Source: Stegostoma tigrinum (Eukaryota). Taken from it: a stretch of 64,000 bases of DNA. The stretch spans positions 13,803,342 through 13,867,341 of the forward strand of contig NC_081391.1 in NCBI RefSeq assembly GCF_030684315.1. Reading direction: 5' to 3'. The notes beneath the pieces are model-generated. The model saw only the letters and a program-made list of their open reading frames with translations, made no database searches and had not been told where the DNA came from. Shown here in pieces: positions 153 to 63,173 of the stretch. Position 1 is the stretch's first letter, and every line of letters starts with the position of its first letter. The translations under genes and the position numbers were made by a program.

Positions 153-2564
153 ATGTCCTACTTTGACCGGGATGATGTTGCCCTCGCCCATGTCTCCCGG
201 TTCTTCAAAGATCAGTCCCAAGAGAAGCAGGAACATGCAGAGAAGCTGCTGAAATTCCAGAATCAGCGTGGAGGCAGAGTCCTCCTCCAGGATGTGAAGG
301 TTGGAGTTTTTGGTGGGGGGTTGTGTGGCAGTGTGCAGGAATGGCAGCTCATGGTGTTTTCTGTCATTAGTGACAGGATTTTCACGTGGTAAAGGGTGTG
401 TAGGTTAGAGTTGGAGAACTTAGGCAGTGGGGAGGAGATGTGAGAAATGGCTGCTTGTGGTGAGGTTTCATGTCCTGAAAGAAAGTGAAAACTGTTCTTG
501 TTTGGCTCCCCTCCTTTTGACTAAAAGGGAAGATCCTCGAAACAAGCCTCTTGGCTCCCCTCCACCTGCTGCTTCTCCACACCGCGCCCCCCCCCCCCCC
601 ACCCCACCCCACCCCACCCCATGCTGACCCAACAAACACCAAACCACATTCATCCCATTTACTGCACTTGGTCTCCAGCCCCCATGGCATTGGTAGTTGT
701 CTAGAAGCTGCTTCAATATTGCAGCAGTAGATGCCTCCCCCACTGCCCCACCCACCCATATTATTTTTCCACTACCCTCTCGGCAAAGGATTCCTCTAAC
801 CTGCTTACTCCTCACATCAGTGCCCTCTGGTCTTAATGTCTCTTTCTCCCCACCCCCTCATAGCAGACACTCCCCATCTACTATCAAGACTCCACACTAA
901 TCAAATGCCATCACAGAAACATCTCAACTGACTTCACTCTGGGGATTGGAGTGAGAAATCTAATCTCTCCTTTTAATGGATTTTTCAGTCTTGGGGCAAC
1001 ATCCTAGTGACCCCTTCCAGTGCCATTGTGGCTCTGGTCACCACACTGTATTCCACGTTTGCATGGCCAATGCTGCAAAGTTTGTGACAAGACTGGAGTC
1101 CCTGGACTGCACCCCAGGAAATGGGGACAGGCATTGTGGAAGCCAACTTCCCCATCCTGTCTACACTTATGGATCCTTGAAATATCTTTAGTCTTGTGCT
1201 CTTGGTTCCTTTATTGTCAACATATTGCTGTCCCTTCAATGAATTAAATAGTAGTGCTGATTTTCATCATTCAGGTCAGTCCTATATGAAGCAATAGGCC
1301 CAGGTTGAAGTCCCACTTGTGCTTATGCTCCAAGCCTAGGGACAGTACCACTGCATAACAAGCCCCGGGCTCAAGTTGTGAATATCCTCCTTGGGATGCC
1401 ATCAGATGGGCACTGACAATTCTGTGCAAGCATAACTCTTATCCCCACTATGACCTGGTCATGAATTGACTCTCCTTTCGGAAGAAGCAAATAGGGCTAG
1501 GTGAAAGGAATTCTTAAATAACTAATCTGGGCTTCAGGGATGGCAGTGGTTAGCACAACTGCATCAGTGCTTGGGGCACAAGCTTAATTCTGGCCTCTGG
1601 TGACTGACTGGAATTTACATGTTCACCACATCTCTACATAGGTTTCCTCCCACAGTCCAATGATGTGCAGGTTAGGATAGGCCATGAAAAATGCAGGATT
1701 ACATGGCTAGGTCTAGGACCAGGTTGGATGCTCTTCAGACGGTCATGAGTGGGCAGAATGGCCTGTTGCATGCTGCAGGGATTTTTGTTTCTGAGGCTTA
1801 ACTGTCCTTCTGTCCATCCTTAGAAGCCAGAGAGGGATGAGTGGGTAACAGTCTGCAGACAATGCAGGTTGCCCTGGATCTGGAGAAGAATGTGAACCAG
1901 AGTTTGCTGGATCTACACCAACTCTCCACAGCCCAGACTGACCCTCATGTAAGCTTCACCACTTCATTCTCATCACTGCGAGACCCTCAGGGTAACACTT
2001 CATTGGTTGGTCTGTGTGGATTGGAAATTCACAGGTGTGCACTGATCACTTCGGGTCCATGCTGCTGAGCAGTTGTTACATGGTGATCAGTAATGAAGTG
2101 AAATGGGAGTTTGGAAGGCAATCCATTGGGAGTGATGAAGTGATATTGGCCATTGAATTCCCATTCTCACTTGGGAGCATTACAGTGGGATGATCATTGT
2201 CCATCACCATCCAACTCAGCTCCACTTCACAAACAGCAAGATGGAGCAGCTGAAATCCTATTGTCATCACCGACACAGATTTTCCAGGTGTTAGCTAAAT
2301 TTTCAGGGCTGTCTGGAACTAGTATGGTAAAGCCTGTTTTTCAGTGGGAATTCTGAAATTGTCTTGGATAGTGTTAATGCACCCAGTTGTCATATTCCTC
2401 TGTTGCAGCTGTGTGACTTCCTGGAGACTCACTATTTGGATGAGGAGGTGGAGATCATCAAGCAACTCGGGGACTACATCACCAACCTGAAGCGCCTGGG
2501 AGCCCCTGAGAATGGGATGGGAGAGTACCTGTTTGACAGGCTCTCCCTGGAGGACAGCAGTTAG
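153..2564 (+). pseudogene. Ferritin subunit gene copy 1 (exons 2-4; exon 1 outside window), 1-bp frameshift in exon 3
   Basis: Exon 2 153-299 ([49 protein letters not shown]), exon 3 1824-1948 (125 nt vs 126 in other copies; GAGTGGGT instead of GAGTGGGGT), exon 4 2409-2564 ([14 protein letters not shown]...LSLEDSS*). Canonical AG/GT junctions, AATAAA near 2690-2699. The deletion is in a G run and could be a sequencing error. Confidence 0.8.
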
Positions 2565-3627
2565 TGTGGCCTGGAGTACTGTCTGCTTGGTCTGAATGCA
2601 TTCCCCACTTCACCCTGGACAACCTGTCTCCTTCCAAGGAGAAGGGACTTGTGTAGCAAAGAATGTAATAGCTGTACCAGCTAAATGGAAATAAATAAAA
2701 TTATGTATTGATCTTGCTTATTGTCCATCATTCAGAGCTCTGAATACTTTGGGTGATAGCTCTTGCTTGAAGCCAGTTCTCTTCTGTAATTTGATTGGTC
2801 CAATTTCTAATTGGACTGGGCAACCCTTCACGGAATCGCTCACTATCCCCACATTAGAATGTAACTAGATGGAGTGTTTTTTTGGTTATTCCTGTGGAAA
2901 TTGAAGGTGCTTCTCCTCCAAATAGGATAAGGTTGGGATTTGTCAATTGTGGCATTGGCTTTCTTCTAGAGGACAATTAGTGCGCTTCTGGATATGGTGG
3001 GTTCAACTGTAGCTCAAAGCAATTGTCTTCCTCTGGTGCCAGGAAGCTCCCACACCGTCCAAAGAGACTTCTCTACCCAGCCTGATAGAATTTGGGATAG
3101 TGGTGTTCAATTGCACATTTCCCTTGAAATCTCTTCCCCGCCTCAGCCATCCTGCGTACTCAATTATTGCCTGAATGATGACAGCAACAAAAAGTGAAAA
3201 CAGCCCTTTATCTACTGACCCAGCTGCCTGATCACCAAGGTCTAAAGGAAGAGGCCCAGCAGGCTCTGATTTCAATCCAGCTGGCGGAAGCAGCAGAGCT
3301 GTGAAACAATCTCGATGGCCTGGTATATCTCTTTTTTTTTTTCCCCATTGGGCCCTACCCTGACCAAAACACACTATATTCTCAGTATTGTTACTTTTTG
3401 GTTTCACCATCCCAAACTGTGGCTGGAGCTCCTTCTCTTCCGCCTCTTCCCCGCTTCTCTTTCCCCCCGCCCGCAACCCAACCTCTTCTTTCTTTTCTTT
3501 CCACGTGCCCCCAGCAGCCTTAACCTTCACCACAGCCCCTTCCCCTGGGAGTCAGCTCAAGACATTCACCTGAACTGGACTGGATTATCATGTAGAGCCT
3601 CATTGCCGCTTACAGCAGGATAACAGG

Positions 3628-5589: not shown

Positions 5590-5800
5590 TGCACTTGTGC
5601 GGGAGGTCAAAGGTCATTTCAGCAATTTCATCATCAACCAGTTGTCAATTCTGATTGGTTTTTTGACCCGATTCCCATCCTGCACTGATTGGATGTGGCA
5701 GCTGATCAAGTGATTAACAAGAGTGTTTGGCCATCACTGATGATCTCATTTCCTGCTTCATAAAATGAGTGTTGGCTCCTGGAGTATAAATAGAGTCCCA
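5590..5800 (+). promoter_or_regulatory. Proximal promoter of copy 2: DR1, inverted CCAAT boxes, E-box, TATA
   Basis: AGGTCAAAGGTCA 5604-5616; CTGATTGG twice; CAGCTG; TATAAATA 5785-5792, 94 nt before the ATG. The block recurs upstream of every exon 1. Confidence 0.75.
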
Positions 5801-5878: not shown

Positions 5879-8800
5879 ATGGCCTCCCAGATCAGTCAGA
5901 ACTATCACCAGGATTGTGAAGCTGCTGTCAACAAGCAGATCAATGTGGAGCTCACTGCCTCCTATCTCTATCAGTCTTTGGTGAGTGGTGTCTCTGTTGG
6001 GTGAAACATACTTCTGTTCTGTTGAAGTAACCTCTTCCCCTTGGATGTAATTAAGTTGTCTATCTTCTAGACTGAGTTTTGTGGCTCCTACCTCTTTCTC
6101 AATGCAGGATGAGTGTGATGTTACTGTAACAATAGTTTGGTGTCTAATGTTACTCTAACTTGGGTCCCAGTTGGTTGTCAGTGAGATGTGGAGGGTGGAG
6201 TGTTCTTGTAGTTACTTGCCTGTCCCATGATGGTGCTGTGACTGGTGGTAATTATCGCTTCCTGTGACTGTTTGTTTGAAACTTGAGGGAACAAAATTAA
6301 AAATGAATTGGGACTCACCATTGTGGGAACGGAAGCACCATCGGCTAGTCACTGCTCTTCTTTTCCTCCTTGTATCCTTGCTTGTATTTGAATTTTGTGG
6401 TGATCCCAACTTAACATCTCAAATAATCTTGATTTCCTATTGCAATCAGCTTAGAATAGGCTTGTTCTAGCCCTGCAGAGCTGGGCTGAGAAGTGGCAAA
6501 TGGAGTTTAATGCAGACAAGTGTGAGGTGATGCACTTTGGTAGGAGTAACCAGCAGGCAAAGCACGAGGCTAATGGTAAGATTCTTAGTAATGTAGATGA
6601 GGAGAGAGATCTCGGTGTCCACGTAAACAGGTCCTTGAAAGTTGCCATCCAGGTTGACAGGGCGGTTAAGAAGGCAGTGTTTTCTCTTTGATTAATAGAG
6701 GCATTGAGTTCTGGAACCAAGAGGTTATGGTGAAGCTGTACCAAACTCTGGTGTGGCTGCACTTGTAGTATTGTATACAGTTCTGGTCACTGCATTATAA
6801 GGATGTGGAAGCTTTGGCAAGAGTGCAGAGGAGGTTTACTAGGATGTTGCCTGGTATCGAGGGAAGCTCTTATGAGGAAAGACTGAGGGACTTGAGGCTG
6901 TCTTCATTGGTGAGAAGGTTGAGAGTTGACTTAATTGAAACATATAATATTCTGAGGGTTGGAAAGGGAAATCCTCTTTCTGCGGACGGTGAGCATGAGG
7001 GGGCATAGCTGTAAATTGAGGGATGATAGATATAGGACAGATGTCTGAGGTAGTTTCTTTACTCAGTAGTAAGGGAATGGAATGCTTTGCCTGTGACGGT
7101 AGTAGATTTGCCAACTTTAGGTACATTTAAGTCGTCATTGGACAAGCATATGGACGTACAGGGAATAGTCTAGGTTAGATGGGCTTGAGATCAGTATGAC
7201 AAGTTGACACAACATCTAGGGCCTGTACTGTGCTGTTATGTTCTAGTTTCAGATTAAACTGGGTGAGGTTGTGACTGGTATCTGATCAAGCAGATCTCCA
7301 TTTGAGATCTACTTTGCTTTTTTTCATACTCATGAGGTGGGTGTGGGCTGTCTGTATATCAGTGTTGGAGCTTTTCCAAGGCATGGCACTGCCGTGGGGC
7401 TGAGAATGTGCGGAGGGTACTGACCCAGTGAATATGGAAAAAATAGCTTATTCCTGTTGTATTTGGCCTGACTCTAAACTAACTAGCCCCTCTTTCCCCA
7501 GGTGGTTGGGTGCCTGTGCCCTTCCAAGGGGTAGAATGTGTTTAGAAGGTGTTAGAAGTAACCTTAGTGAGTGTTGCCGGGTGCTCTCTGGGCTTGTGCT
7601 TGTCAGCAGGAAGTCCTCTCATGATGAGGATCAAGTCCCTGTCAGCCCCACTTTGGGAGGTGGCAACAGCTTTCATTGAGCCAGCAGTTCAGTTTTAATC
7701 GCTGACCCATGTTCCTAACACAACTTGGAAGCATGTCCCAAGAGTAAAATCTCCACTATTCTACATCTTCTAACTGCCCATTTAAATGGGCAATGATAAA
7801 TTGTGCTTGTGTTTGCATTTGACAATTAAAGCAACTTTTTTCAGCAGGATTCCCAAGAATGTGTGTCTTAGTAGCTGCTTCCAATAGCAGACCTGGTAAA
7901 CCTGAATACATTGAATTGTGAACATCCTGGTTTAGAAATCTACAGGACTTTGCCTGTTGGATTAAGTCAACAGTAGCATTTCCACGTTACTGTTTTAATA
8001 AGTGATGTTGTCTAGAGAGTAGGTGATCTGCAGGTCACTGTCATATTTGTCATGTGATCAGTTTGTTTTGTCAATCAGTGTTTCATGTGTAATGGTACAA
8101 GTTGCTAGCAGTCTCAGTACAGCTGTTTTAGATGCAGCAGTAAACTGTATCTAGAACAATCCAAAGACTGTCCCGAGGCAGGCTTTCCTTGGCAGATTCT
8201 TGGTGCCCATGTCCTTCATTCATCCCTTCCCCCTCACCCCAGCCACCCCACTACTGCAGCCCTTGTCAAACTAATAGATACAGTGCATCCAATTGCATTG
8301 ATCCTGACTAAGCAGAAAATGTGCTCCTTCCTAGCTGTTAGTTGCAGTGTCTGGGATCTGTTTTCTGGCCTTTGCCAAAGGAGCAATAGCGTGCCCTGCA
8401 GCTGTTCTATTGGTGCACATCCTGCATTCCAGCTTCTGGCATTTCTTGAAACCCTATTCAATCAGTAATTTATCCCATTTCTGGTGGAGGTTAATCAGTA
8501 AAAACATCAATTCACACTTGTTCTCACCCAATGCTGTGCCAGACCCACTGAGCAATTTGCCAGGAGTTTCAAACCAAAATAAAACACATGGTGTTTACAG
8601 CTTACCTGGAGGAAGCTGGGATTGTTTTGATTTTTCCAATTCAACAGGAACTGCTCAAAACTGGGTTCTGAATTGTTAATGCATCAGGTACTTAACAGCT
8701 TATTGTCAGTCTGATTTTTAGAATGCTCAAGTAGCCCTGGAGCTCTGAACTAAAATTGGCCCGTGACTTGTTAATGGGCTTTACCTTGATCTCCCTTCCA

Positions 8801-11065
8801 GATGTCCTACTTTGACCGGGATGATGTTGCCCTCCCCCATGTCTCCCGCTTCTTCAAACATCAGTCCCAGGAGAAGCGGGAACATGCAGAGAAGCTGCTG
8901 AACTTCCAGAATCAGCGTGGAGGCCGGGTCCTCCTCCAGGATGTGAAGGTTGGAGTTGGGTGGGGTGGGGGTTGGGATGGTAATGGCTGCTCTTGTGGTG
9001 TGGTTTCAAGTCAGTGACAAGGTTTTCATTTGAGTCAAAACTTTGTTCGGCCTGTTTGATCTCCTTTTTGAAGCCAGTGTAGAAAGAAGCCCTTTGGCCC
9101 ACCATGTCTTTGCTGACCCCACAAACACTAAAGCACATTAATCCCATTTACCTTCCCTTGGTCCACAGGCCACTGTCCTGGCACTATATACTTGTCCAGC
9201 TGGACCTTAAACTGATCTGGAGTAGCTGACTCCACCACCATCCAACCCTTTATGTGGTTCATCTCATATTTCTAACCTCCCCCTCGGAGGAGGGTGAAGA
9301 GAACGTTTCCTCCAATCCCCTCTAACCTGCTTACTCCACAAACCTGGTTTCTCTCTGGTCTTGCTGTCTGCTATGGGGAAGACATTCCATCAACTGGCCA
9401 CTCTCTATTCTTCAATAGTTACATCAGGTCACTCCCTCAGCCGTTCCTGCTCCACAGAAAATCCCAGCCGATCTAACCTCCAATCAATGGATCTTGGGCA
9501 ACAGCCTGGGCAACCTCACCAGCTTCCCCCTGCAGTGCCATCCTGTCCTTGTGACTGGTGAGGCCCAAGAGGGAATAATGTGGTGACTAGAAGAACAAAC
9601 TGTGACAAGACTGGCCCCCTTCCTGTTCCACCACACCCAACTAATAGAGGTTGCTTGCCCTCTGTCACTGTTACACCCTGTTGACCTTGTCTGAACTTTG
9701 AGGGATCTATGGTTGTGGGCCTTTCTTCACTGTTAGCAGCACAACACACTTTGCAAACACCTCGCTGTCCCTTGGATGAATTAAATAGCCGTGATGTTTC
9801 TGATCATCCTGCTCAGGCATGTATGAAGCCACCAGCACAAGTGGTACTTGAACCTTGGCCTTGTCAGCCAGAGACAGGGGCACTACCACTGTACCATGAC
9901 AGCATTTAGGATTCACTTGTGAATATCCTCGCAATTCCATCAGATGGACCCTGATGCAAATCTTGTCATTATCCCCCACAATGACCTGTTATTCAACTTC
10001 CTCCTTCAGATCAAGGACCGACAGGCAAGGTGAAAGCAATTCTGAAGGAACTGTGCTCCAGGGCTGCCTCAGGGGCTAGCAGTGTTCTCAGTGCTAGGGA
10101 CACAGGTCTGGATCTGGCCTCTGGTGAGGGACTGGTGTTTACATGTCCTCCCCATGTCTGCATTGGTGTCCTCATAGGATAAGGGGATTGGCCATCTGAA
10201 ATGCAGGGTTACAGGAATAGGGTGGGAGAATGACGAGTTGGGATCCTCTTCAGAGCAGTTACAGACTGATCCACGTTGTAAAGATTCTGAAGCTTAACTG
10301 TCCAACTTTCCTTCCTCCAGAAGCCAGAGAGGGATGAGTGGGGTAACAGCCTGCAGGCAATGCAGGTTGCCCTGGATCTGGAGAAGAATGTGAACCAGAG
10401 TTTGTTGGATCTACACCAAGTCGCCACAGCCCAGACTGACCCTCATGTAAGCTTCACCTCCTCATTGACTTCACTGCTAGGCCCTCAGGGCAACACGTTC
10501 ATTGGTTGGTCTTTTGTGGATTAGAAATTCAGTTAGACTTTGTTTTTGTGCAGATGACATGGATCACTTCAGATCCATAGTGATTACAAAATCATTGCTG
10601 AGCAGTTGAGTCCAAGTGTGTATTTTAACTTGTAAACCTGTGGGGAGGACTGAGGGGATATTGGTCACTGAATTCTCATTCAGGACCACTGCAGTGGAAT
10701 GACTTTTATCCGTCACAAGTTAACTCTGCTCCAGTAAATAAACAGCAAGATGAAACTGCTAAAAAGCAGTTGTCCTCTTTGCACAATTTCTCCAGGCGTT
10801 GGCTCGAGACATCCCTGACCATCTCCCTCCATATGCATGTTTTTAGTGGGAATTCTGAAGTTGTCTTGGATAGTGTTAATGTACCAAGTGTCATATTCCT
10901 CTGTTGCAGCTGTGTGACTTCCTGGAGACCCACTATTTGGATGAGGAGGTGAGGATCATCAAGCAACTCGGGGACTACATCACCAACCTGAAGCGCCTGG
11001 GAGCCCCTGAGAATGGGATGGGAGAGTACCTGTTTGACAGGCTCTCCCTGGAGGACAGCAGTTAG
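5879..11065 (+). CDS. Ferritin subunit gene copy 2 (type A), intact, 176 aa, H/M-like scaffold with L-type K62/E141
   Basis: Exons 5879-5980, 8802-8948, 10321-10446, 10910-11065, all GT-AG and phase 0. Joined frame is open: [47 protein letters not shown].../[26 protein letters not shown].../[19 protein letters not shown]...; ferritin motifs EHAEKL, QNQRGGR, DPHLCDFLE. TATA 5785, AATAAA 11193. Confidence 0.93.
6473..7246 (+). mobile_element. 5'-truncated CR1 LINE in intron 1 of copy 2
   Basis: Broken ORF2 C-terminus ([36 protein letters not shown]) followed by CR1-type 3' end TGTACTGTGCTGTTATGTTCTA. Confidence 0.92.
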
Positions 11066-13610: not shown

Positions 13611-15061
13611 GAGGATAGCAAAGGTCATTCCCCTGTTCAGAGGATAGCAAATGTGGTTCCCCTGTGCAAGAAGGGGAGTAGAGACAAACCTGGTAATTGT
13701 AGACCAGTCAGCCTTACCTCAGTTGTTGGTAAAGTGTTGAAAAAGGTTACAAGGGATAGGATTTATAATTATCTCGAAAAGAATAAATTGGTTAGGGATA
13801 GTCAGCACGGTTTTGCGAAGGGAAGGTCGTGCCTCACAAACCTTATTGAATTCTTTCAGAAGGTGATCAAACAGGTATTTGAGAGTAAACCGGTTGATGT
13901 GGTGCATATGGATTTCAGCAAGTCGTTCGATAAGGTTCGCCACAGTAGGCTATTGTACAAAATGCGGAGGAATGGAATTGTGGGAGATATAGCAGTTTGG
14001 ATCGGAAATTGGCTTGCTGAAAGAAGACAGAGGGTGGTAGTTGATGGAAAATGTTCATCCTGGAGACCAGTTACTAGTGGTGTACTGCAAGGGTCGGTGT
14101 TGGGTCCACTGCATTTTTATAAATGACCTGGATGAGTTTGTAGAAGGATGGGTTAGTAAATTTGCAGACGACACTAAGGTCAGTGGAGTTGTGGATAGTG
14201 ACGAAGGCAGCTGTAGGTCGCAGAGAGACATAGATAAGCTGCAGAGCTGGGCTGAGAAGTGGCAAATGGAATTTAATGCAGACAGGTGTGAGGTGATGCA
14301 CTTTTGTAGGAGTAACTGGAAGGCAAAGTACAGGGCTAATGGTAAGATTCTTGGTGGTGTAGATGAGCAGAGAGATCTCGGTGTCCATGTACACAGATCC
14401 TTGAAAGTTGCCACCCAGGTTGACAGGGTGGTTGAGAAGGCATACAATGTTTTGGCTTTTACTAATAGAAGGATTGAGTTCCAGAACCAAGAGGTTATGG
14501 CGAAGCTGTACAAAACTCTGGTTAGGCCGCACTTGGAGTATTGTGTACAGTTCTGGTCACCCCATTATAAGAAGGATGTAGAAGCTTTGGAAAGGGTGCA
14601 GAGGAGATTTACTAGGATGTTGCCTGGTATGGAGGGAAGGTCTTACGAGGAAATGCTGAGGGACTTGAGGCTGTTTTCATTCAAGAGAAGAAGGCTGAGA
14701 GGTGACTTAATTGAAACATATAAAATAATTCGAGGGTTGGATAAGGAGAGCCTTTTTCCTCGGATGGTGACAGCGAGCACGAGGGGGCATTGCTTTAAAT
14801 TGAGGTGTGAATGATATAGGACAGATTTCAGAGGCAGTTTCTCTACTCAGAGTAGTGAGGGAATGGAACGCTTTGCCTGCAACGGTAGTAGATTCACCAA
14901 CTTGAGGTACATTTCAGTCGTCATTGGACGAGCATATGGACGTACATGGAATAGTGTTGGTTAGATGGGCTCCATATCGGTATGACTGGTTGGCACAACA
15001 TCGAGGGCAGAAGGGCCTGTACTGTGCTGTAATGTTCTATGTTTTATGTTCTATATTCTAT
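13611..15061 (+). mobile_element. 5'-truncated CR1 LINE upstream of copy 3
   Basis: ORFs 13653-14126 and 14041-14814 give RT motifs RPVSLTSVVGK, QHGF, DFSKSFDKV, GVLQGSVLGP, FADD; 10-bp deletion frameshift; (TTCTATG)-like tail. Confidence 0.95.
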
Positions 15062-41525: not shown

Positions 41526-41603
41526 ACGGGAATGATGTTGATTGTTCTTCCTAATTTTGTTATTTTGGTGGTGAGGAAAATAAAAGAAATTTATTGTCAC
41601 AAG

Positions 41604-50112: not shown

Positions 50113-50591
50113 TGCCCCAAGGACGTTATGTTTTTTTGTCTAGTTGATGTTGGTTCTAAATTGGTCACTTATGTCGTGAATAGAGTAAAACAAACTCCTC
50201 ATCACAAGATGGCCTCCCTGATTAGTCAGAACTATCACCAGGATTGTGAAGCTGCTGTCAACAAGCAGATTCATGTGGAGCTCACTGCCTCCTATCTCTA
50301 TCAGTCTTTGGTGAGTGTTGTCCCTAGGGGGTTAAAACTTGATCTATGTAGTTGCAGTAAATGGTTTCTCTTGAATTTAAATAACTGGACTCTCTCTGGT
50401 CGACTGAGTTTTGTGGTCCTTTCCTAAATATTAATTCAGGATAAGGGCAATGTTACTATACCAATGGGGTTTGATAATGATGTATTCTGAAGCTGGGTCC
50501 CAGTTGGCATTTGGAGATATGTGGAGGTTTAAGTGTCCCTGGAGATATTTGCCAGTTTTGATTGGCAGTAGATGTCATTCCCTCTAAGATT

Positions 50592-50726
50592 ACACAGCAG
50601 GCTGAGCAGGAAGGCTGATGTTTTGGGGCTTAACCCTTCTGAAGGTGTGTCTAGGCCCAAAACATCAGCTTTCCTGCTCCTTTGCTTGGCCTGATGTGTT
50701 CATTCAGCTCTACATCATTGTATCTC
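50592..50726. mobile_element. Palindromic Penelope pLTR-derived mini-element in intron 1 of copy 7
   Basis: GAGCAGGAAGGCTGATGTTTTGGGGC (from 50604) is an inverted repeat of GGCCCAAAACATCAGCTTTCCTGCTC (to 50679); the arms match the element end at 26240-26310. Confidence 0.7.
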
Positions 50727-53356
50727 AAGGGGTAGAGTGTGTTTGGAAGTTGTGTTGAAGTAACCTTGGTGAGTGCTGCAGGGGACCTGGTAGATAATGG
50801 ACCCTGAAAGGAGGTGGTGAATGCAGTCCCCATCAAGTGGGCTGCTCTGTCCTGGATGGTGTCTGCTTCTTGCAAGTGGCAGCTCCACCTCCACAGACAC
50901 ATGGAGAAGCTTCATCACACTCAGCTTTTTTCTCTTAGAAAGAAGATGCCTCATGACAGATGGATGAAGCCTGTGTAAACTCCATTTGGGAGGTGGGTAC
51001 AGCTTTCATTGGTGAGCTAGTTGATGGGTGTTAATTCCTGACCAGGGTCCCAATTCCCTTGGGGAACATGTGTGCCAATTCTAAAATCCTTCCTATTCTC
51101 TCCTGCCACAGCTTGTCCCTACCCCAATTAAACAGCCAAGAAATTTTGTTTGACTGCTTCTGCTTCAAGAAAGTAACTTCCCACCAGGTTTCCTCAACAA
51201 CAAAACCCTTAGCTCCTGTTTCAAATATCAGAAGAATCGCCCTTCATAAACCTCAAGGCATTGGATTGTGAATATCTCGGTTCGGAAGTGAGTCACATAT
51301 GGGTGGACAAACAACAGAACGCTGCCTGCTGGAATAAGCCAAACTCTGGTGTCCAGCTTTGTGTTAACTAGTGATGTTAGATCAGCCATTATCTGGAGGT
51401 ACATGTCGCATTGGCCTGCTCCCTCTCTCCCTCTCCCCCCCCGTGTGCTCTTGTGGTCATGTGACCCTTGTTTTCTCCCCCCCGACCCCTTCTGGATGTG
51501 AGTGCACTAATTTTAGTGTGCTATAAACTATAGCTGCAACAATCCAGAGGCTGTTACTGGGTAGGTTTTCCTTTGCACTCTCTTGTTGTCGCTTTCTCTC
51601 ATTCGCCTCTACTATATCTTGTAGTAATAAAATATACCGTACACTATCTCCCTGGTTTTGAGGCCGCAGAAACCTTGCTTCCTCCTGGTTATATTGTTAC
51701 AGCAGTGTCTAACATGCATTTCCATGCCAGCCCCAAAGGAGCAATAGTGTTGCAGCTCCGCTACTCAACTATAGCCTGCACTCCAGCTCCTGGTGCTTGT
51801 TTCAGCTGTTTTTTAGGCTCTAAATTTGTCCAATTCAAATGAAGGTTAGTGAGTGAAAACATGGCTGGATGCAAGAAGAGCTATAATGCTGTGCCAGACA
51901 GCCTGAGCAATTCACTGTTTTAAGCCAAACTTTTGCCAGTTTCCAATAGGAAATTGGGATTGTTGTGTTAGTTCCCAGTTGAAGGATCTGCTGGCCAGCT
52001 GGATATCAGCGGATTCTCAACCATGTTCACATACCAGGCAGTTAACAGCTAACTGAGCAGTTAGCTTGCTGCAGAAGGCTGAACTAGAATTTGGAGTCAG
52101 TGCTGTGTTCAATGGGCTTTAACATGTTCTCTCCCTTCCAGATGACCTACTTTGACTGGGATGATGTGGCCCTCCCCCACTTCTCCCAGTTCTTCAAAGA
52201 TCAGTCCCAGGTGAAGCAGGAACCTGCAGAGAAGCTGCTGAAATTCCAGAATCAGCGTGGAGGCAGAGGCTGAGTCCTCCTCCAGGATGTGAAGGTTGGA
52301 GTTGTGTGGGAGGGTTGCAGCTGTGGGGAAGAGAATGGCAGCTCTTGTGGTGCTGCTTCCTGTTGGGATGTAAAAATCCTCTTTTGGCCTGGCTTCCCTG
52401 TTTGATTTCTTTTGAAGGCAGTTTCTAAACTAGCCCTATTGTCCACCATGTCTATGCTGCCCACAAACCTCAAACTACATTAACACAATTTCCTTGCACT
52501 TAGTCCACAGCCTACTATCTTCTGGCATGAAGAAGTTGTTGAGATTAGGCTTCAATGTTGCTGGAGTAACTTCCTCCACTGACCCCTCAGGTCATGCATC
52601 CCATACCTCTCCCACCCTCCATTTATCCTCCAATCTCCTCAAACCTGTGCCATCTGGTCTTCATGTCTGCCACAGGGACTGTCTATTGTCCATGCTCCCT
52701 GATCTTCCACACTTCCATGAGATAACCATCCCAGTCTATCCAACCTCCCTCTCATCATTGTTTTTTTTGTCAGTTTTCTTCCCCCATCTTGGGCCAACAT
52801 CCTGATGACCCTCACCTGTACCCCCTCCAGTGTCACCCTGTCCTTCTGATTGTGGTTCTGGTCACCACACTACATTCCTTCTTTGGTCTGGCCAATGCTG
52901 CCATGTTTATGGCAAGACTCATCCTTTTTACTGATCCCCAACTCCTGGAGACCAGCATCATGTCAGCCCCTTCCCCACTCTGTCTACCTTTGCTGAACCT
53001 TGAGGGATGGCCTTGGGCATTTGTTGCTTGTCCCTTTTACTGTAAGCACATTGCTGCTCCCTTCAATGAATTAAACAGCAGTGATGTCTGATCATCCTGC
53101 TCAGACATGTATGAAGCCACTGGCACAGGTGAGACATAGATGCCTGGCCTGCAAGGTCCAGATTGGTACTCTACCTCAAGAGCCCTTGAGACTAAGGTGT
53201 GAATGTCCTGATCTAAATGACAAATGGGCACTGGTGCAAACAGTTTAACTTTGTGTGAAATAAATCCCTGTCCCCACAATGACTTCATGCTTCAGATCAA
53301 GGATAAATGGAGCAAAGTGAAGTCACCTACAAGTCATCAATGTGGGTTTTAGGGGT

Positions 53357-53597
53357 GGCACAGTTGCTCAGTGGTTAGCACTGCTGCCTCAGTGCCAGGG
53401 ACACAGGTTTAGCTCTGGCCTCTGGTGACTGGTGCTGACAAGATCAGTTTCTTCCTACAGTCCAAATATGGGCAGGCTGGGTGAAGTAGCTGTGGGGGAA
53501 ATGCAGGGCTATGGGATCAGGTAAATCTGAGATCTGCTTCAGAAGGTTGATTGCAGACTCAATGGGCTGAATGGCCTGCTCCCATGCTGCAGGGAGT
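53357..53597 (+). mobile_element. tRNA-derived SINE relic in intron 2 of copy 7
   Basis: GGCACAGTTGCTCAGTGGTTAGCACTGCTGCCTCAGTGCCAGGGAC head and GACTCAATGGGCTGAATGGCCTGCT tail. Confidence 0.65.
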
Positions 53598-56500
53598 CTG
53601 ATTCTGAGGCTTAACTGTACTTCTTTTCCCCCCTCCAGAAGCCAGAGAGGGATGAGTAGGGTAACAGCCTGCAGGCAATGCAAGTTCTCCTGGATCTGGA
53701 GAAGAACGTGAACCAGAGTTTGTTGGATCTACACCAACTCGCCACAGCCCAGACTGACCCTCATGTAAGCTTCACCTCTTCATTCTCACCACTGCCATGC
53801 CTCCTCAACTTCATTGGTTGATCTTTGTGGAGTGGAAAGTCACAGACGTAACTCTGTCCAGATGCTACATTGTCATCATAATTATGTTATTAAGGTACAA
53901 TGTTACAATTGCTCAACACCAAACTGAAATAGGAATTTGGCTGACAGTCTAGTGGGAATGCTGATGTGATTTTTGGCTGCTGAATTGGGGATTGTTGCAC
54001 TATACAATACAACTTGGAGCTCTTTAAGAAGGTGAGATGGATCAGCTGAAATGTTGTCGTCACTGGCATCAATTCTCCACCTGGTAGCTAGATTTTCAGG
54101 GCTGTCTAGAGCAATTTATGGCTAAGGGTTTTTCAGTGGGAATTATGAAGTTGTCTTGGACAGTGTTAATGCACTCAGTTGTCGTCTTCCTCTGTTGCAG
54201 CTGTGACTTCCTGGAGACTCTCTATTTGGATGAGGAGGTGGAGATCATCAAGCAACTGGGTGACTACATCACCAACCTGAAGCACCTGGGAGCCCCTGAG
54301 AATGGGATCGGAGAGTACCTGTTTGACAGGCTCTCCCTGGAGGACAGCAGTTAGTGTGGCCTGGAGCACTGTCTACTTGGTCTGAATGCATGCCCCACTT
54401 CACCCTGGCCAACCTGTCTCCTTCCAAGGAGAAGGGACTTGTAGCAAAGAATGTAATAGCTGTAGCAGCCGAATGGGAATGAATAAAATGATGTGTTGAT
54501 CTTGCTTATTGTCCATCATTCAGAGAACTGGGTGGTGTCTCTCGAGAGCTTGAAGCCTGTAATCTTTCTGTAGTTTGATTGGCTGGTCCAATTACAATTG
54601 GACATGAGACTAATTCACTGGGTCTTTTGACAATTTCCCCACCTCACTGGTCAGGGATAATGAGATGGAGTGCCTCCTTTGTGTGAAACAAGATATTCCC
54701 CTCCCACCAGAATTTGAGGTTGTGGTTTGATGCTGTTGGCCGAGAAAACGTTTTCGACAATGACTAGCATACTGTTGGATGTGGTGTGCACAATTGTAGT
54801 TAACAGAACGTGGAATTCCTTTTGCAAAAGCAACTTCCCACACCTTTTATCAAAAGCTGGGACCAGGCCCCAACATTCTGAAAATTAGGGAAATTTTAAC
54901 TTGTACATGGATAAGGCATGGAAAAATTAACGTTAAATACCTTTCCTCATCAGCCTCCCTGAACAGTACCTTACACTCCAAGTGACAGAAATCACAATTT
55001 GACGACAAAACTAACTAATCTGCTGGCTGGATCAGCTCAGCCGAAGGAGGTGAGATATCGGGATGTGTTTCCTTGCCAGGGGCAGGAACCAGCTCATTGG
55101 GAGAGGATACCACTTCAGCTGGTCTGCTATTCATTGTGACTCGGGCCCTAACATGACGTGACGAGTATATTCTATTCTCAGTTCTCAGCATTGTTGTCTC
55201 CTTTGTTTCTGTTACTTTTTTCTTTACACCCCCCTCCCCCACAACCATGTGTGCAGCCCAACAGCGTTGGGTGCTGGTAAAGGGTCAAACCAGGACCAGC
55301 AGTCAAGGTGGTGGGGGGTGGGGTGCCACGTGCCACTCTCTAAAACCCATTCACCCTTCCCTTGTTACACGTCTCCACCAGTTGGCAATGCTCACCAGTT
55401 GATTCCTCCTTCAGTCTGAGTTACCACACGGTGACACTTCAGGGGATTTTATATCCACTTCAGCTCCAAAAGGAGTCAATGCCCATGGTTGCTGGGGGCA
55501 GTATGCGCAGAAGCAATCCCAATTTGTCCGAATGTGGCTCCCTTATTCCACTTTCTTTCCCTATCCTTGCACTTACTCTACCGCTTCATCCAAGGAAAAA
55601 TTTTCAAGCCTACCACCCCCAAGACCTGGGAAAGTGCAGCCCAAATTTTCACAGCAGCCTCTATCAGACAGTCAGCTCACATTCACCTGAGCTGTATGGG
55701 CGTATAATGCCTGCTCTTGATGCCACCCACAGTGGCAGTGTCTTGAGCATAGCATAGCACAGCAGCGCTCCTGGTTAAATGTTGCCATTTGATTGGCTCT
55801 TGCTGCTAAAGCCTGCATTGAGCGCACTAAGCTGCTCCTTTGGTTCCTCTGAGCTTCCCCCACGGTGAGCGTTACTCCTGATGCAGGTTAATTGGGTGAA
55901 ATCACATTGAAGGAGCAGTGTGACTCGGAGAGGAGACCTGGAGATGCTGATTTTCCTGTCCCCCTGCTTCCCTTATCTTTCGAGGGGTCAGAGATCCTGG
56001 GTTAGGGAGGGGGCTATCAGAGACATCCTGAGGATTGTTCCAGGGAGTTTTGTAGCGAGTGCACACTGCAGCCTGCATGAGGGTGTGGGTCTTTAAGGCA
56101 CTGAGCGTGTTTGTTCCTCCACAGAGAGCAGTTTAATTGCAGCAAATTGAAGTCTTGGCTGGAGAATCCCAATAGTGCAGCAAGAGGATATTAGGCCCAT
56201 TAAATCTGCATCGACCCACTGAACCACATCCTGCTCAGACCCAACCCATTTGCTTAACCCCACGGACAATCGAATTACCTTGGATGCGCATTGTCACTAT
56301 GGGGCTATTTAGTATTACCAACCCACCTACCCTGCAAATCATTGGGCTGTGTGAAGAAACTCAAGCACCTGGAGGAAATCCACGCAGGCCATCAGCCAGG
56401 GGTAGAATCGAACCTGGGTCCCTGGCACTGAGGCGCCAAAACATTCTAAAGTACCAAAGGGAAGGAATGCACTGTGGCAAACTACGTCATGGGAATAGAC

Positions 56501-57719
56501 TCTGCAGCCCAGCCCGAACTTGCAGACCAGGTTTTCATAAACTGTGTAGTGCCATTTGCCTACATTTGGCCCATCTTTCTCTAAACCGTTCCTTTCCATG
56601 TAAATCTCCAAATGTCACTTAAATGTTGTAATTCTATCCACCTCGACCACTTCCTCTGGCAGCTCGTTCCATGCACGTACCACCCTCTGTGTGAAAATGT
56701 TGTCCCTCACACCCCTTTTAAATCCTTCCCCCTCTCCCATCAAACCGGTGCCCTCTAGTTTTGGACCCCCCTACCCTGTCCCAGCATGCTTTTTATATAC
56801 AGTCAATCTTGAGTGTGCCAATGGCAAGGCTACATTTAGTGCTCAGCAACTGTTCCACTTCAGGAGGTGGTGATGAGCTGGTTATTACAGTCCACCTGGT
56901 GTCGGCGAGACCGGAATGATGCTGCTGCTGCTGCTGAGGAGGGGCTTCTGGGATTTTCGTTCACAAACAGGGATAGTGTTCCAAGTCAGGATGGTGACAG
57001 ATTTACATGGAGCTGCTTGAGTGTCGTCGGAGCTGCCTCAAGCGACAACATTGTAAACTATTCCAGCACTACTCCCAACTTCAGCCTTATTGACGGTGGA
57101 CAGGTTTTGGAAACTCAGGAGTTGAGTACTTCCTGACAGAATTCCCAGCATCTGAATTCCCAGTTTCTGAGCTGTACCATCTACAGAACGCAATGTAAAC
57201 AGGACCAGAAATTGCTCACTTGGAAACCTGCTGGGGTTAATCGCTAGTTCTACTTCAAACAATGAAAAACGAAACTGGGAGACAGAAATGTTCAACGTGC
57301 GATACATTTCTAGCAGCAACTGAGACATAGAGGCCTGAGGCCTACTGTGTAGAAGAGGCACTCAGCACATTTAGCGTTTTGCTTTTCAAACTGGGCCTTC
57401 AAGGTCAAGGTCAGGGAGATCACATGAGATGCAGATTGGATCCACAAAGTACATCAGTTGCCTGTTTTAGATGATCCAAAAGCACATTATTTCTGTTGCG
57501 GCACAGAAATAGGAAAATGTTCAGATCAACCAAATCGAGCCATTTTTCAAAGAGCTCCAACACCAATGTTCAAAAATTATGACGACTAATCCCTCAGAAT
57601 AACAATCCGACAGAATTCTGCAAATCTGTGTTGAGTGTGTCTTAACGCACAACTTCAGATACAGACGTGAAGTTTTAGAGCATACTTTATTCTCATTTTC
57701 AGGGAGATGTCCTCCCAGA

Positions 57720-57930
57720 ATTTGCACTTGTTCAGGAGGTCAAAGATCATTTCAGCAATTTCATCATCAACCACTCATCAATTCTGATTGGTTTTTTGAC
57801 CCGATTCCCATCCTGCACTGATTGGATGTGGCAGCTGATCAATTGATTAACAAGAGTGATTGGCCATCACTGATGATCTCATTTCCTGCTTCATAAAATG
57901 AGTGTTGGCTCCTCGGGTATAAATAGAGTC
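57720..57930 (+). promoter_or_regulatory. Proximal promoter of copy 8
   Basis: AGGTCAAAGATCA 57737-57749, three GATTGG, TATAAATA 57918. Confidence 0.7.
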
Positions 57931-58011
57931 CCAGGGCAGGGATGTTTATTGTTGTTCTTAACTTTGTTATTTTTGTGGTGTGGAAACTAAAGCAAGCTTT
58001 TCCTTTACAAG

Positions 58012-61000
58012 ATGGCATCCCAGATCAGTCAGAACTATCACCAGGATTGTGAAGCTGCTGTCAACAAGCAGATTAATGTGGAGCTCACTGCCTCCTATCT
58101 CTATCAGTCTTTGGTGAGTGCTGTCTCTGTTGGGTGAAACATACTTCTGTTCTGTTGAAGTGAACTCTACCCCTTGGATGTAATTAAGTTGTCTATCTTA
58201 TAGACTGAGTTTTGTGGCTCCTACCTATTTCTCAATGCAGGATGAGTGTGATGTTACTGTAACAATAGTTTGGTGTCCAATGTTACTCTAACTTGGGTCC
58301 CAGTTGGTTGTCAGTGAGATGTGGAGTGTTCTTGTAGTTACTTGCCTGTCCCATGATGGTGCTGTGACTGGTGGTAATTATAGCTTCCTGTGGCTGTTTG
58401 AAACTTGAGGGAACTAATTTAAAAATGAATTGGGACTAACCATTGTGGGAATGGAAGCACCATCAGCTAGTCACTGCTCTTCTTTTCCTTCTTGTATCCT
58501 TGCTTGTATTTGAATTTTGTGGTGATCCCAACTTAACATCTCAAATAATCTTGAGAATCTTGATTTCCTATTGCAATCAGCTTAGAATAGGCTTGTTCTA
58601 GCCCTACAGAGCTGGGCTGAGAGGTGGCAAATGGAGTTTAATGCAGACAAGTGTGAGGTGATGCACTTTGGTAGGAGTAACCGGAAGGCAAAGCACGAGG
58701 CTAATGGTAAGATTCTTAGTAATGTAGATGAGCAGAGAGATCTCGGTGTCCACGTAAACAGGTCCTTGAAAGTTGCCATCCAGGTTGACAGGGCGGTTAA
58801 GAAGGCAGTGTTTTCTCTTTGATTAATAGAGGCATTGAGTTCTGGAACCAAGAGGTTATGGTGAAGCTGTACCAAACTCTGGTGTGGCTGCACTTGTAGT
58901 ATTGTATACAGTTCTGGTCACTGCATTATAAGGATGTGGAAGCTTTGGCAAGAGTGCAGAGGAGGTTTACTAGGATGTTGCCTGGTATCGAGGGAAGCTC
59001 TTATGAGGGAAGACTGAGGGACTTGAGGCTGTCTTCATTGGTGAGAAGGTTGAGAGTTGACTTAATTGAAACATATAATATTCTGAGGGTTGGAAAGGGA
59101 AATCCTCTTTCTGCGGACGGTGAGCATGAGGGGGCATAGCTGTAAATTGAGGGATGATAGATATAGGACAGATGTCTGAGGTAGTTTCTTTACTCAGTAG
59201 TAAGGGAATGGAATGCTTTGCCTGTGACGGTAGTAGATTTGCCAACTTTAGGTACATTTAAGTCGTCATTGGACAAGCATATGGACGTACAGGGAATAGT
59301 CTAGGTTAGATGGGCTTGAGATCAGTATGACAAGTTGACACAACATCTAGGGCCTGTACTGTGCTGTTATGTTCTAGTTTCAGATTAAACTGGGTGAGGT
59401 TGTGACTGGTATCTGATCAAGCAGATCTCCATTTGAGATCTACTTTGCTTTTTTTCATACTCATGAGGTGGGTGTGGGCTGTCTGTATATGAAGTGTTGG
59501 AGCTTTTCCAAGGCACGGCACTGCCGTGGGGCTGAGAATGTGCGGAGGGTACTGACCCAGTGAATATGCAAAAAATAGCTTATTCCTGTTGTATTTGGCC
59601 TGACTCTAACTAGCCCCTCTTTCCCCAGGTGGTTGGGTGCCTGTGCCCTTCCAAGGGGTAGAATGTGTTTAGAAGGTGTTAGAAGTAACCTTAGTGAGTG
59701 TTGCCGGGTGCTCTCTGGGCTTGTGCTTGTCAGCAGGAAGTCCTGTCATGATGAGGATCAAGTCCCTGTCAGCCCCACTTTGGGAGGTGGCAACAGCTTT
59801 CATTGAGCCACCAGTTCAGTTTTAATCGCTGACCCATGTTCCTAACACAACTTGGAAGCATGTCCCAAGAGTAAAATCTCCACTATTCTACATCTTCTAA
59901 CTGCCCATTTAAATGGGCAATGATAAATTGTGCTTGTGTTTGCATTTGACAATTAAAGCAACTTTTTTCAGCAGGATTCCCAAGAATGTGTGTCTTAGTA
60001 GCTGCTTGCAATAGCAGACCTGGTAAACCTGAATACATTGAATTGTGAACATCCTGGTTTAGAAATCTACAGGACTTTGCCTGTTGGATTAAGTCAACAG
60101 TAGCATTTCCAGGTTACTGTTTTAATAAGTGATGTTGTCTAGAGAGTAGGTGATCTGCAGGTCACTGTCATATTTGTCATGTGATCAGTTTGTTTTGTCA
60201 ATCATTGTTTCATGTGTAATGGTACAAGTTGCTAGCAGTCTCAGTACAGCTGTTTTAGATGCAGCAGTAAACTGTATCTAGAACAATCCAAAGACTGTCC
60301 CGAGGCAGGCTTTCCTTGGCAGATTCTTGGTGCCCATGTCCTTCATTCATCCCTTCCCCCTCACCCCAGCCACCCCACTACTGCAGCCCTTGTCAAACTA
60401 ATACAGTGCATCCAATTGCATTGATCCTGACTAAGCAGAAAATGTGCTCCTTCCTAGCTGTTAGTTGCAGTGTCTGGGATCTGTTTTCTGGCCTTTGCCA
60501 AAGGAGCAATAGCGTGCCCTGCAGCTGTTCTATTGGTGCACATCCTGCATTCCAGCTTCTGGCATTTCTTGAAACCCTATTCAAACAGTAATTTATCCCA
60601 TTTCTGGTGGAGGTTAATCAGTAAAAACATCAATTCACACTTGTTCTCACCAAATGCTGTGCCAGACCCACTGAGCAATTTGCCAGGAGTTTCAAACCAA
60701 AATAAAACACATGGTGTTTACAGCTTACCTGGAGGAAGCTGGGATTGTTTTGATTTTTCCAATTCAACAGGAACTGCTCAAAACTGGGTTCTGAATTGTT
60801 AATGCATCAGGTACTTAACAGCTTATTGTCAGTTTGATTTTGAGAATGCTCAAGTAGCCCTGGAGCTCTGAACTAAAATTGGCCCGTGACTTGTTAATGG
60901 GCTTTACCTTGATCTCCCTTCCAGATGTCCTACTTTGACCGGGATGATGTTGCCCTCCCCCATGTCTCCCGCTTCTTCAAACATCAGTCCCAGGAGAAGC

Positions 61001-63173
61001 GGGAACATGCAGAGAAGCTGCTGAAATTCCAGAATCAGCGTGGAGGCCGGGTCCTCCTCCAGGATGTGAAGGTTGGAGTTGGGTGGGGTGGGGGTTGGGA
61101 TGGTAATGGCTGCTCTTGTGGTGTGGTTTCAAGTCAGTGACAAGGTTTTCATTTGAGTCAAATCTTTGTTCGGCCTGTTTGATCTCCTTTTTGAAGCCAG
61201 TGTAGAAAGAAGCCCTTTGGCCCACCATGTCTTTGCTGACCCCACAAACACTAAAGCACTTTAATCCCATTTCCCTTCCCTTGGTCCACAGGCCACTGTC
61301 CTGGCACTATGTACTTGTCCAGCTGGACCTTAAACTGATCTGGAGTAGCTGACTCCACCACCATCCAACCCTTTATGTGGTTCATCTCATATTTCTAACC
61401 TCCCCCTCGGAGGAGGGTGAAGAGAACGTTTCCTCCAATCCCCTCTAACCTGCTTACTCCACAAACCTGGTTTCTCTCTGGTCTTGGTGTCTGCCATGGG
61501 GAAGGCATTCCATCAACTGGCCACTCTCTATTCTTCAATAGTTACATCAGGTCACTCCCTCAGCCGTTCCTGCTCCACAGAAAATCCCAGCCTATCTAAC
61601 CTCCAATCAATGGATCTTGGGCAACAGCCTGGGCAGCCTCACCAGCTTCCCCCTGCAGTGCCATCCTGTCCTTGTGACTGGTGAGGCCAAAGAGGGAATA
61701 ATGTGGTGACTAGAAGAACAAACTGTGACAAGACTGGCCCCCTTCCTGTTCCACCACACCCAACTAATAGAGGTTGCTTGCCCTCTGTCACTGTTACACC
61801 CTGTTGACCTTGTCTGAACTTTGAGGGATCTATGGTTGTGGGCCTTTCTTAACTGTTAGCAGCACAACACACTTTGCAAACACCTCGCTGTCCCTTGGAT
61901 GAATTAAATAGCCGTGATGTTTCTGATCATCCTGCTCAGGCATGTATGAAGCCACCAGCACAAGTGGTACTTGAACCTTGGCCTTGTCAGCCAGAGACAG
62001 GGGCACTACCACTGTACCATGACAGCATTTAGGATTCACTTGTGAATATCCTCGCAATTCCATCAGATGGACCCTGATGCAAATCTTGTCATTATCCCCC
62101 ACAATGACCTGTTATTCACCTTCCTCCTTCAGATCAAGGACCGACAGGCAAGGTGAAAGCAATTCGAAGGAACTGTGCTCCAGGGCTGCCTCAGGGGCTA
62201 GCAGTGTTCTCAGTGCTAGGGACACAGGTTTTGATCTGGCCTCTGGTGAGGGACTGGTGTTTACATGTCCTCCCCATGTCTGCGTTGGTGTCCTCATAGT
62301 ATAAGAGGATTGGCCATCTGAAATGCAGGGGTACAGGAATAGAGGGGGAGTGGGATGAGCTGGGATGCATTTCAGAGCAGTTCTGCACTGATCGATGTTG
62401 TAGAGATTCTGAAGCTTCACTTTCCTTCTTTCCATCCTCAGAAGCCAGAGAGGGATGAGTGGGGTAACAGCCTGCAGGCGATGCAGGTTGCCCTGGATCT
62501 GGAGAAGAATGTGAACCAGAGTTTGCTGGATCTTCACCAACTTGCCACAGCCCAGACTGACCCTCATGTAAGCTTCACCACTTCATTCTCTTCACTGCTG
62601 GTCACTCAGGGCAACACCTTCAATGGTTGGTCTTTTGTGGATTAGAAGTTGCCTGCTGTCTCAGACAAGTGCCATTTGGATCTCTTCAGATCCGTACCAA
62701 TGCTTATAATCTGATCAGCTCAGCAATCAAGTAAAATGGGAATTTGGATTATAATCTAGTAGGAGTGATGAAGTGATATTGGCCACTGAATGCTCATCCA
62801 GGATTATTGCAGTGGAATGATCACTATCCATCATAATCCAACACAGCATCACTTAACAAACTGCAAGAGCAGTTGAAATACATGGTCCTCACTGGCATAG
62901 TCTCCAGGTGTTAGGTTTTCAGGGTAGTCTAGAGCTCATATGGCTGAGTGTTTTGCAGTAGGAAATCTGAGGTTGTCTTGGATAGCATTAATGTAGCAAG
63001 TTGTCATATTCTTGCAGCTGTGTGACTTCCTGGAGACTCACTATTTGGATGAGGAGGTGGAGATCATCAAGCAACTCGGGGACTACATCACCAACCTGAA
63101 GCGCCTGGGAGCCCCTGAGAATGGGATGGGAGAGTACCTGTTTGACAGGCTCTCCCTGGAGGACAGCAGTTAG
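58012..63173 (+). CDS. Ferritin subunit gene copy 8 (type A 5' part), intact, 176 aa
   Basis: Exons 58012-58113, 60925-61071, 62442-62567, 63018-63173; open frame, GT-AG junctions, TATA 57918, AATAAA 63302. Confidence 0.93.
58603..59376 (+). mobile_element. 5'-truncated CR1 LINE in intron 1 of copy 8
   Basis: Near-identical to 6473-7246 (ORFs 58631-58822, 58936-59139). Confidence 0.92.

Follow-up and report, generated by a model that had tools for sequence, protein, structure and literature searches.

Ferritin genes of a 1.42 Mb array in Stegostoma tigrinum encode a Lys62 subunit predicted to lack ferroxidase activity

Introduction

Large expansions of ferritin genes have been reported in sharks. 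Passages of a study of the Greenland shark give 155 FTL and 179 FTH1 copies, in clusters syntenic with those of the white shark (Sahm et al., bioRxiv 10.1101/2024.09.09.611499), and passages of a second study give 59 FTH1b copies and higher copy numbers across sharks (Yang et al., 2026; PMC13214024). So far the additional genes have been interpreted as a gain in iron handling or in protection from ferroptosis, tied to longevity. Here, we describe a stretch of 64,000 nucleotides from Stegostoma tigrinum (NC_081391.1, positions 13,803,342–13,867,341 of the forward strand; the window hereafter) that lies inside an array of 170 ferritin gene units, all of whose second exons carry lysine at position 62 in place of a glutamate that is essential to iron oxidation in other ferritins. 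This array is the larger of two in the genome and encodes a subunit predicted neither to oxidise iron nor to answer to cell iron; copy counts are therefore unreadable as ferroxidase dose, and many of the additional ferritins described from sharks may be unable to oxidise iron.

The published shark clusters resemble the present one: tandem intron-containing genes number in the hundreds, a single chromosome carries them in a few groups, and they are old and widespread in sharks. They differ in that the passages of Sahm et al. and Yang et al. at hand treat neither ferroxidase residues, nor the iron-responsive element (IRE), nor a separate Lys62 subfamily; the word 'ferroxidase' does not occur in the accessible text and supplements of Yang et al. 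(PMC13214024). A search of the published literature, which did not extend to the supplements of Sahm et al., found no description of a Lys62 shark ferritin subfamily. While the expansion itself has already been published, its division between two IRE-less arrays, one intact and the other disarmed, appears not to be in print.

Among better-studied ferritins, the light chains (FTL) of the coelacanth and tetrapods share Lys62, Glu141 and Leu173 with the shark subunit at 59–66% identity, the amphibian 'light chain, oocyte isoform' being especially similar. The shark subunit departs from FTL in that no IRE was found, Glu57 and Glu60 are absent, Glu141 was acquired late and there are 170 copies; it nevertheless most likely works like a light chain. 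Mammalian light chains have lost Glu27 and His65, whereas the shark subunit keeps both, as do some amphibian light chains. The M chains of fish and frog provide the closest solved structures (69–71% identity, template-modelling (TM) score of 0.93–0.94) but retain Glu62 and Gln141, which the shark subunit does not; the latter is also without a detected IRE, and the genome has a separate IRE-bearing M-type gene. The array is likewise distinct from the H chain (FTH1), since the bestrophin-adjacent gene of the H clade lies on another contig (C20). Lastly, FTHL17 is an X-linked, intronless H-like mammalian gene. Like the shark subunit it is multi-copy and combines Glu62Lys with retention of the other ligands; it is expressed in the germline and, according to passages of the source, has no ferroxidase or storage role (PMC5312872). 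The shark genes differ from it in having three introns and in falling outside the H clade of a tree whose rows did not include placental FTHL17.

The Lys62 array

When exons were counted across 12.90–14.50 Mb of the window's chromosome (C50), the array was found to occupy positions 12,987,143–14,403,990 (1.42 Mb) and to hold 170 units, all on one strand. The preliminary description of the window had proposed amplification to at least eight copies, and the count exceeds that estimate about twentyfold. Four exons are present in 164 of the 170 units; those strictly intact number 94, with 85 distinct coding sequences and 72 distinct proteins among them, and a further 18 are otherwise intact, differing only by a GC splice donor. 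Lys62 occurs in all 169 second exons (145 recognized by pattern, 24 by eye) and hence is not a matter of chance. A Gln codon at position 141 is absent from all 167 fourth exons; two of them are missing one codon of the Glu pair. Among the 85 distinct intact coding sequences pN/pS (the ratio of nonsynonymous to synonymous polymorphism) is 0.26, and a count of alleles in the array gives 109 nonsynonymous and 73 synonymous on 416 and 112 sites, respectively (ratio 0.40). The genes of the array are real, selected and old.

Across the 112 intact or GC-donor copies, Glu27, Lys62, Glu64, Glu107, His118, Cys130, Asp131, Glu134 and Glu141 are invariant, His65 is present in 108 and Glu61 in 107. Retention of Glu27 and His65, observed earlier in the window, thus extends to the array. 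Position 57 is Asp or His (64 and 48 copies), as had been stated from the window; position 60, said to be Gln, is Gln in 102 copies and Arg in ten. Since 90 of the 176 columns are invariant across these 112 copies, invariance of a single site within the species is not special.

The array grows through block duplications and turns over by birth and death. The window itself is repeated 127,013 bases upstream at 99.96% identity (C50: 13,676,329–13,740,314; ten mismatches and two gaps), either because the block was duplicated very recently or because of an error in assembly. That the amplification as a whole is neutral or decaying, or that its size has been inflated by misassembly, seems very improbable. 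Such an account could point to the 58 broken units among the 170, as expected of a partly neutral array, and to the near-perfect twin of 64 kb or more, on account of which part of the 170-unit count may come from assembly duplication. Its functional part is, however, largely refuted by the pN/pS value, by splicing (see below), by the 85 distinct intact coding sequences, by clusters of 45, 76 and 19 members in other carpet sharks and by persistence across shark orders. A pure pseudogene array was rejected. The preliminary proposal of a real, amplified and selected subunit bearing Glu62Lys, which inactivates the ferroxidase centre of other ferritins, is borne out.

Ferroxidase centre and proposed function

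Residues are numbered as in the human H chain from matches in the PDB to human H and frog M chains, a shark residue being the H number minus 3. An AlphaFold model computed from an alignment (mean predicted local distance difference test score of 90) has five helices, arranged as a four-helix bundle with a short E helix, and superimposes on frog M and human H ferritin structures with TM scores of 0.93–0.95; the fold is modelled as that of an ordinary ferritin. The complete H-type centre comprises Glu27, Glu62, His65, Glu107 and Gln141, and the subunit has instead Lys62 and Glu141. A Lys62–Glu107 salt bridge stabilizes light chains. Both candidate partners are among the invariant residues listed above. 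The residues of the iron-entry channel (His118, Cys130, Asp131 and Glu134) are kept. The inner acidic nucleation set of the light chain consists of Glu57, Glu60, Glu61 and Glu64. Two of the four, those at 57 and 60, are lost in the shark subunit, and mineral nucleation, which had been put forward as a possible role, is accordingly disfavoured.

Glu62 is a ligand of the di-iron site and, according to passages of a review, Glu62Lys is sufficient to abolish the activity of FTHL17 (PMC7760355); passages of another review state that Glu62Lys together with His65Gly inactivates the human H chain (PMC6929972). By analogy with these two proteins, the Lys62 subunit is predicted to be without ferroxidase activity. 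In Lys62 proteins of other sharks, His65 has changed to Arg, Cys or Tyr and Glu27 to Asp; the drift at His65 is what one would expect of an inactive site. Alternatively, the subunit could still oxidise iron through a rebuilt centre, with Glu141 or Glu61 standing in for the missing bridging Glu62; this would be in keeping with the retention of Glu27, Tyr34, Glu61, His65 and Glu107 and with the ligand added by Gln141Glu. We consider it improbable, because most sharks combine Lys62 with Gln141, leaving no replacement for most of the history of the clade, because of the drift at positions 65 and 27 just described, and because FTHL17 is inactive despite keeping the other ligands (passages of PMC7760355).

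The best explanation overall, to which we would assign a probability of roughly 0.58, is that the array encodes a non-catalytic Lys62 partner subunit, IRE-less and made in bulk. The subunit would be produced in oocytes on a developmental schedule, without iron control, and would mix with active Glu62 subunits into many stable iron-storage cages, much as the mammalian light chain does. FTHL17 offers a different model, that of an iron-independent germline protein whose cages might serve structure, the storage of protein or of other metals, or regulation. It carries the same Glu62Lys change, is expressed in the germline, has six copies in the mouse and has no iron-storage role (passages of PMC7760355 and PMC5312872); the shark subunit is likewise without a detected IRE, lacks two of the inner acidic residues and is encoded by an array of its own, 5.6 Mb from the Glu62 array. 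Against this stand the iron-entry channel residues and Glu27, Glu64 and Glu107, invariant in all 112 copies, the retention of three introns under strong constraint, and the active IRE-less array with a related promoter alongside, and we regard a germline role of this kind as unlikely.

Iron control and expression

No IRE was found in the window by an Rfam-type search or within 150 bases upstream of 167 start codons of the array. Genome-wide, the Rfam IRE search gave at least two sites (82 candidates scored), one at FTH1 on C20 and the other at a single M-type gene on C50; none was found at the sampled loci of the Glu62 array. From its sequence, the Lys62 subunit would thus escape iron-dependent translational control. 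The TATA box of copy 2 in the window (5785–5792, + strand) lies 94 bases upstream of the start codon, a position that implies a short leader without an IRE. The region upstream of copy 8 (57,712–58,011, + strand) contains an inverted CCAAT motif, an E-box-like hexamer and a TATA box; it is conserved array-wide and partly resembles the promoters of the Glu62 array. Upstream regions of eight of 15 Glu62-array genes match the Lys62 promoter profile, with scores of 1.9–12.4 bits against −0.3 for the best of 300 shuffles, and none of four control genes does so.

Some Lys62 copies are spliced. Contigs from sequencing run X7 span the exons of Lys62-array genes and are joined across all three introns at GT–AG, in a manner that is not assignable to copy 8, and run X11 has splice joints of the array at low depth; run X8 covers introns and has no joints, run X1 contributed only two exon-4 pieces and run X9 nothing further. 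In the region 58,112–63,017 of the window, X7 also has contigs joining exons 1–3, 1–4 and 2–4, which represent either exon skipping or chimeric assembly of paralogues. Passages of Sahm et al. report ovary-specific expression of the Greenland shark ferritin cluster (bioRxiv 10.1101/2024.09.09.611499). By analogy with that shark, in which expression was not split by subtype, production of the Lys62 subunit in the ovary is likely. The demand for bulk protein suggested in the preliminary description fits the failure to find an IRE and the ovary expression published, in the passages just cited, for the Greenland shark cluster.

Several observations weigh against a bulk, non-catalytic partner subunit. 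The retention of Glu27, Tyr34, Glu61, His65 and Glu107, and the carboxylate added by Glu141, make residual metal binding or slow oxidation possible. The non-Glu residues at positions 57 and 60 run contrary to nucleation of the light-chain type. Three of the eight promoter-profile matches span only the TATA stretch, and the shuffles with which they were compared were single-base. The contigs give no level, tissue or copy, and no run is on record as RNA. Some Greenland shark copies are also transcribed in fin and blood, according to passages of Yang et al. (PMC13214024).

Distribution and age

Lys62 proteins were found in Heptranchias, Heterodontus, Scyliorhinus, Mustelus, Cetorhinus, Carcharodon, Chiloscyllium, Hemiscyllium and Rhincodon. 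In trees whose rows were the top database matches or members of their clusters, the shark Lys62 proteins form one clade (support 100/99) that runs from sevengill to carpet sharks. The subunit had initially been called lineage-specific, which does not hold for a clade spanning Heptranchias to Stegostoma, and a species-specific origin was rejected. No Lys62 protein of a ray, chimaera or ray-finned fish was present among the matches listed, which is weak evidence of absence.

Gln141 and Lys172 are retained in 15 of the 20 Lys62 rows from sharks; Glu141 and Arg172 are limited to the other five, all of them from carpet sharks. Because they are confined to carpet-shark rows, the matches to the mammalian light chain at positions 141 and 172 are late and convergent, and the supposition that Glu141 is an inherited light-chain state is not supported. 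Lys62 characterises an old shark subfamily, in which Glu141 is a later acquisition restricted to carpet sharks. Four further motifs of the window proteins (DEWG, TDPH, RLG and GEYLFDRL) had been taken as light-chain-like. The Glu62 array has all four and frog M has DEWG, RLG and GEYLF, and the L-specific reading of these motifs was rejected.

Shared ancestry with light chains or convergence

Lys62 probably arose in early sharks from an IRE-less Glu62 lineage, independently of the light chain of the coelacanth and tetrapods. An origin within sharks is favoured because neither array has a detected IRE and because the two share promoter-profile matches. In a tree with few light chains, which omitted 22 of 76 rows, the Lys62 clade joins the Glu62 array (86/85), with a P value of 0.36 in the approximately unbiased (AU) test for the alternative grouping of Lys62 sharks with light chains. 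The Lys62 clade also shares Cys9, Lys22, Gln23, Ser94 and Asn109 with the Glu62 array. When light chains from the coelacanth, amphibians and reptiles were added, each with Lys62 and Glu141, the position of the clade changed, and the Lys62 sharks join the light chains weakly (84/65). A probably chimeric alligator model was omitted from the trees that followed. On removal of columns 62 and 141 the Lys62 sharks return to the Glu62 array (87/86), and the grouping with light chains is left in 8% of bootstrap trees (AU P = 0.47). A mixture model behaved alike (65 with all columns, 85 without columns 62 and 141). Two results count against an independent origin: a further tree from all columns joins Lys62 sharks and light chains (58/68), this grouping occurring in 60% of bootstrap trees against 38% for Lys62 with the Glu62 array (AU P = 0.41), and the AU tests reject neither grouping (P = 0.36, 0.41 and 0.47).

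The Lys62 subunit might instead be a true orthologue of the light chain, Lys62 having arisen once in the ancestor of jawed vertebrates, with sharks and the coelacanth and tetrapod light chains as its descendants; this we hold to be a serious alternative, though the less probable one. The best all-column trees join the two groups, and the AU test fails to reject the grouping even without columns 62 and 141. Ser at H-chain position 52 and a non-Glu residue at position 98 are common to Lys62 sharks and light chains. The coelacanth has two Lys62/Glu141 genes with Glu27, and Xenopus tropicalis has Glu27, Lys62, His65 and Glu141. The last case bears on the preliminary contrast with mammalian light chains, from which the window proteins differ in keeping Glu27 and His65 alongside Lys62 and Glu141: this combination is not unique, the X. 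tropicalis light chain P0450 having the same four residues. The array also shares a chromosome with RUVBL2, which neighbours FTL in human.

Against orthology, support for the grouping is weak and is gone once columns 62 and 141 are dropped, and the five residues common to the Lys62 clade and the Glu62 array speak for the latter as the nearer relative. Mammalian FTL has a 5′ IRE. Orthology would need two losses of the IRE in sharks, in addition to gene losses in chimaera, rays and ray-finned fish, and the basal shark members keep Gln141. FTL is syntenic with BAX, GYS1 and RUVBL2. RUVBL2 is found at 18.55 Mb of C50, 4.1 Mb from the Lys62 array, and all M-type and array genes are on this same chromosome. 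A putative Bcl-2-family gene lies at 26.43 Mb of C50, and glycogen synthase genes are on C20 and C33, not on C50. Reading frames listed for 100 kb on each flank of the array comprised repeats and microsatellites, among which no neighbour gene was identified. A CA/GT microsatellite of about 10 kb stands immediately to the left of the first array unit (C50: approximately 12,973,900–12,983,900).

In a broader but rather doubtful scenario, a disarmed Lys62 light chain would be as old as jawed vertebrates and would have begun as an egg-provisioning subunit. Sharks would have freed it of iron control and amplified it to more than 100 copies, the coelacanth and amphibians would have kept single 'oocyte' light chains and the mammalian storage chain would be a later derivative. 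For the division of labour between H and L chains, the choice is between a light chain older than bony vertebrates and recruitment of the same substitution three times (in the light chain, FTHL17 and sharks), in the latter case each time with a germ-cell link. The two Lys62/Glu141 ferritins of the coelacanth, and the retention in tetrapods of Glu62 M-type genes as distinct loci, suggest that L and M are paralogous and not, as is usually stated, simply orthologous; passages of Lee et al. (2014; PMC4117605), for example, regard the M chain of teleosts and the L chain of tetrapods as orthologues.

Other ferritin genes of the genome

A search of the genome with the Glu62 motif gave 129 exact matches, including one FTH1 and one IRE-bearing gene. 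Among the matches listed (100 of the 129), one is on C20 and the others are on C50 at 20.0–21.6 Mb and on contig C216. The Glu62 array occupies C50: 19.99–21.55 Mb and C216, with more than 120 exact motif matches in tandem and in mixed orientations; its products have a complete ferroxidase centre and its genes are IRE-less where sampled. The single IRE-bearing M-type gene (C50: 21.607–21.609 Mb, minus strand) also encodes a complete centre and is spliced in runs X7 and X11. C50 thus combines a single iron-regulated housekeeping gene with two IRE-less arrays, the centre being intact in one of them and altered in the other. The C20 gene faces a bestrophin gene, groups with H chains and bears an IRE; it is FTH1, as its bestrophin neighbour and H-chain grouping indicate. 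Human FTH1 likewise adjoins BEST1.

Two further genes lie near the M-type gene on C50. One, at 21,591,660–21,601,910 on the plus strand, is a divergent Glu62 ferritin with a different start of exon 1. The other, at 21,659,128–21,670,214, encodes a 'lower subunit-like' ferritin that groups with a chimaera protein and whose centre is dismantled in another way, with Lys27, Leu62, Asn65, Gln107 and Asn141. Three ferritins of shark or fish type (P0397, P0400 and P0036) are filed in databases under Salmonella enterica and Aeromonas veronii, probably through contamination.

The eight genes of the window

The window comprises eight four-exon ferritin genes arranged head-to-tail on the + strand with a spacing of about 8–9.5 kb. 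Their exon sizes of 102, 147, 126 and 156 bases and GT–AG joints follow the four-exon, three-intron plan of vertebrate cytosolic ferritin. As first reported, exon 2 encodes QSQ(E/V)K(Q/R)E(H/Q/P) and exon 4 LDEEV in each of the eight copies, at the expected positions, and the PDB-based numbering confirms that these motifs correspond to Glu62Lys and Gln141Glu of human H, so that Lys62 and Glu141 are present in eight of eight. A search of the window for tRNA, tmRNA and Rfam families returned none.

Copies 2, 5 and 8 are intact, encoding 176 residues with GT–AG introns. Copy 2 (5879–11,065; exons 5879–5980, 8802–8948, 10,321–10,446 and 10,910–11,065) has Lys62 and Glu141. Copy 5 (32,620–37,624; exons 32,620–32,721, 35,355–35,501, 36,879–37,004 and 37,469–37,624) has an intact frame with the variant His65Gln. 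Exon 2 of copy 8 (58,012–63,173; exons 58,012–58,113, 60,925–61,071, 62,442–62,567 and 63,018–63,173) is 100% identical to P0010, a S. tigrinum protein with the database label 'ferritin, middle subunit-like'.

The remaining copies, 1, 3, 4, 6 and 7, are broken. Copy 1 (153–2564) enters the window with exons 2–4 (153–299, 1824–1948 and 2409–2564), has a one-base deletion in exon 3 and has its exon 1 about 2.1 kb upstream of the window start. Copy 3 (15,519–19,674; exons 15,519–15,620, 17,378–17,524, 18,931–19,056 and 19,519–19,674) has a stop codon in exon 2, and copy 4 (24,897–29,464; exons 24,897–24,998, 28,184–28,328, 28,729–28,854 and 29,309–29,464) has a two-base deletion in the same exon. 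Copy 6 (41,604–45,757; exons 41,604–41,705, 43,458–43,604, 45,012–45,137 and 45,602–45,757) has no start codon, the initial 28 bases of exon 1 (41,603–41,630) having been inverted in place. Copy 7 (50,209–54,354) is a pseudogene with a six-base insertion containing a stop in exon 2, a stop in exon 3 and a shifted exon-4 acceptor.

An interspersed repeat of about 800 bases, presumably a fragment of a long interspersed nuclear element (LINE), which it resembles, occurs at 6473–7250, 14,239–15,044, 22,422–23,828, 33,220–33,994, 40,327–41,132, 47,957–48,727 and 58,604–59,380. It is found in either orientation, inside intron 1 or between genes, and is very abundant in all of the sequencing runs compared.

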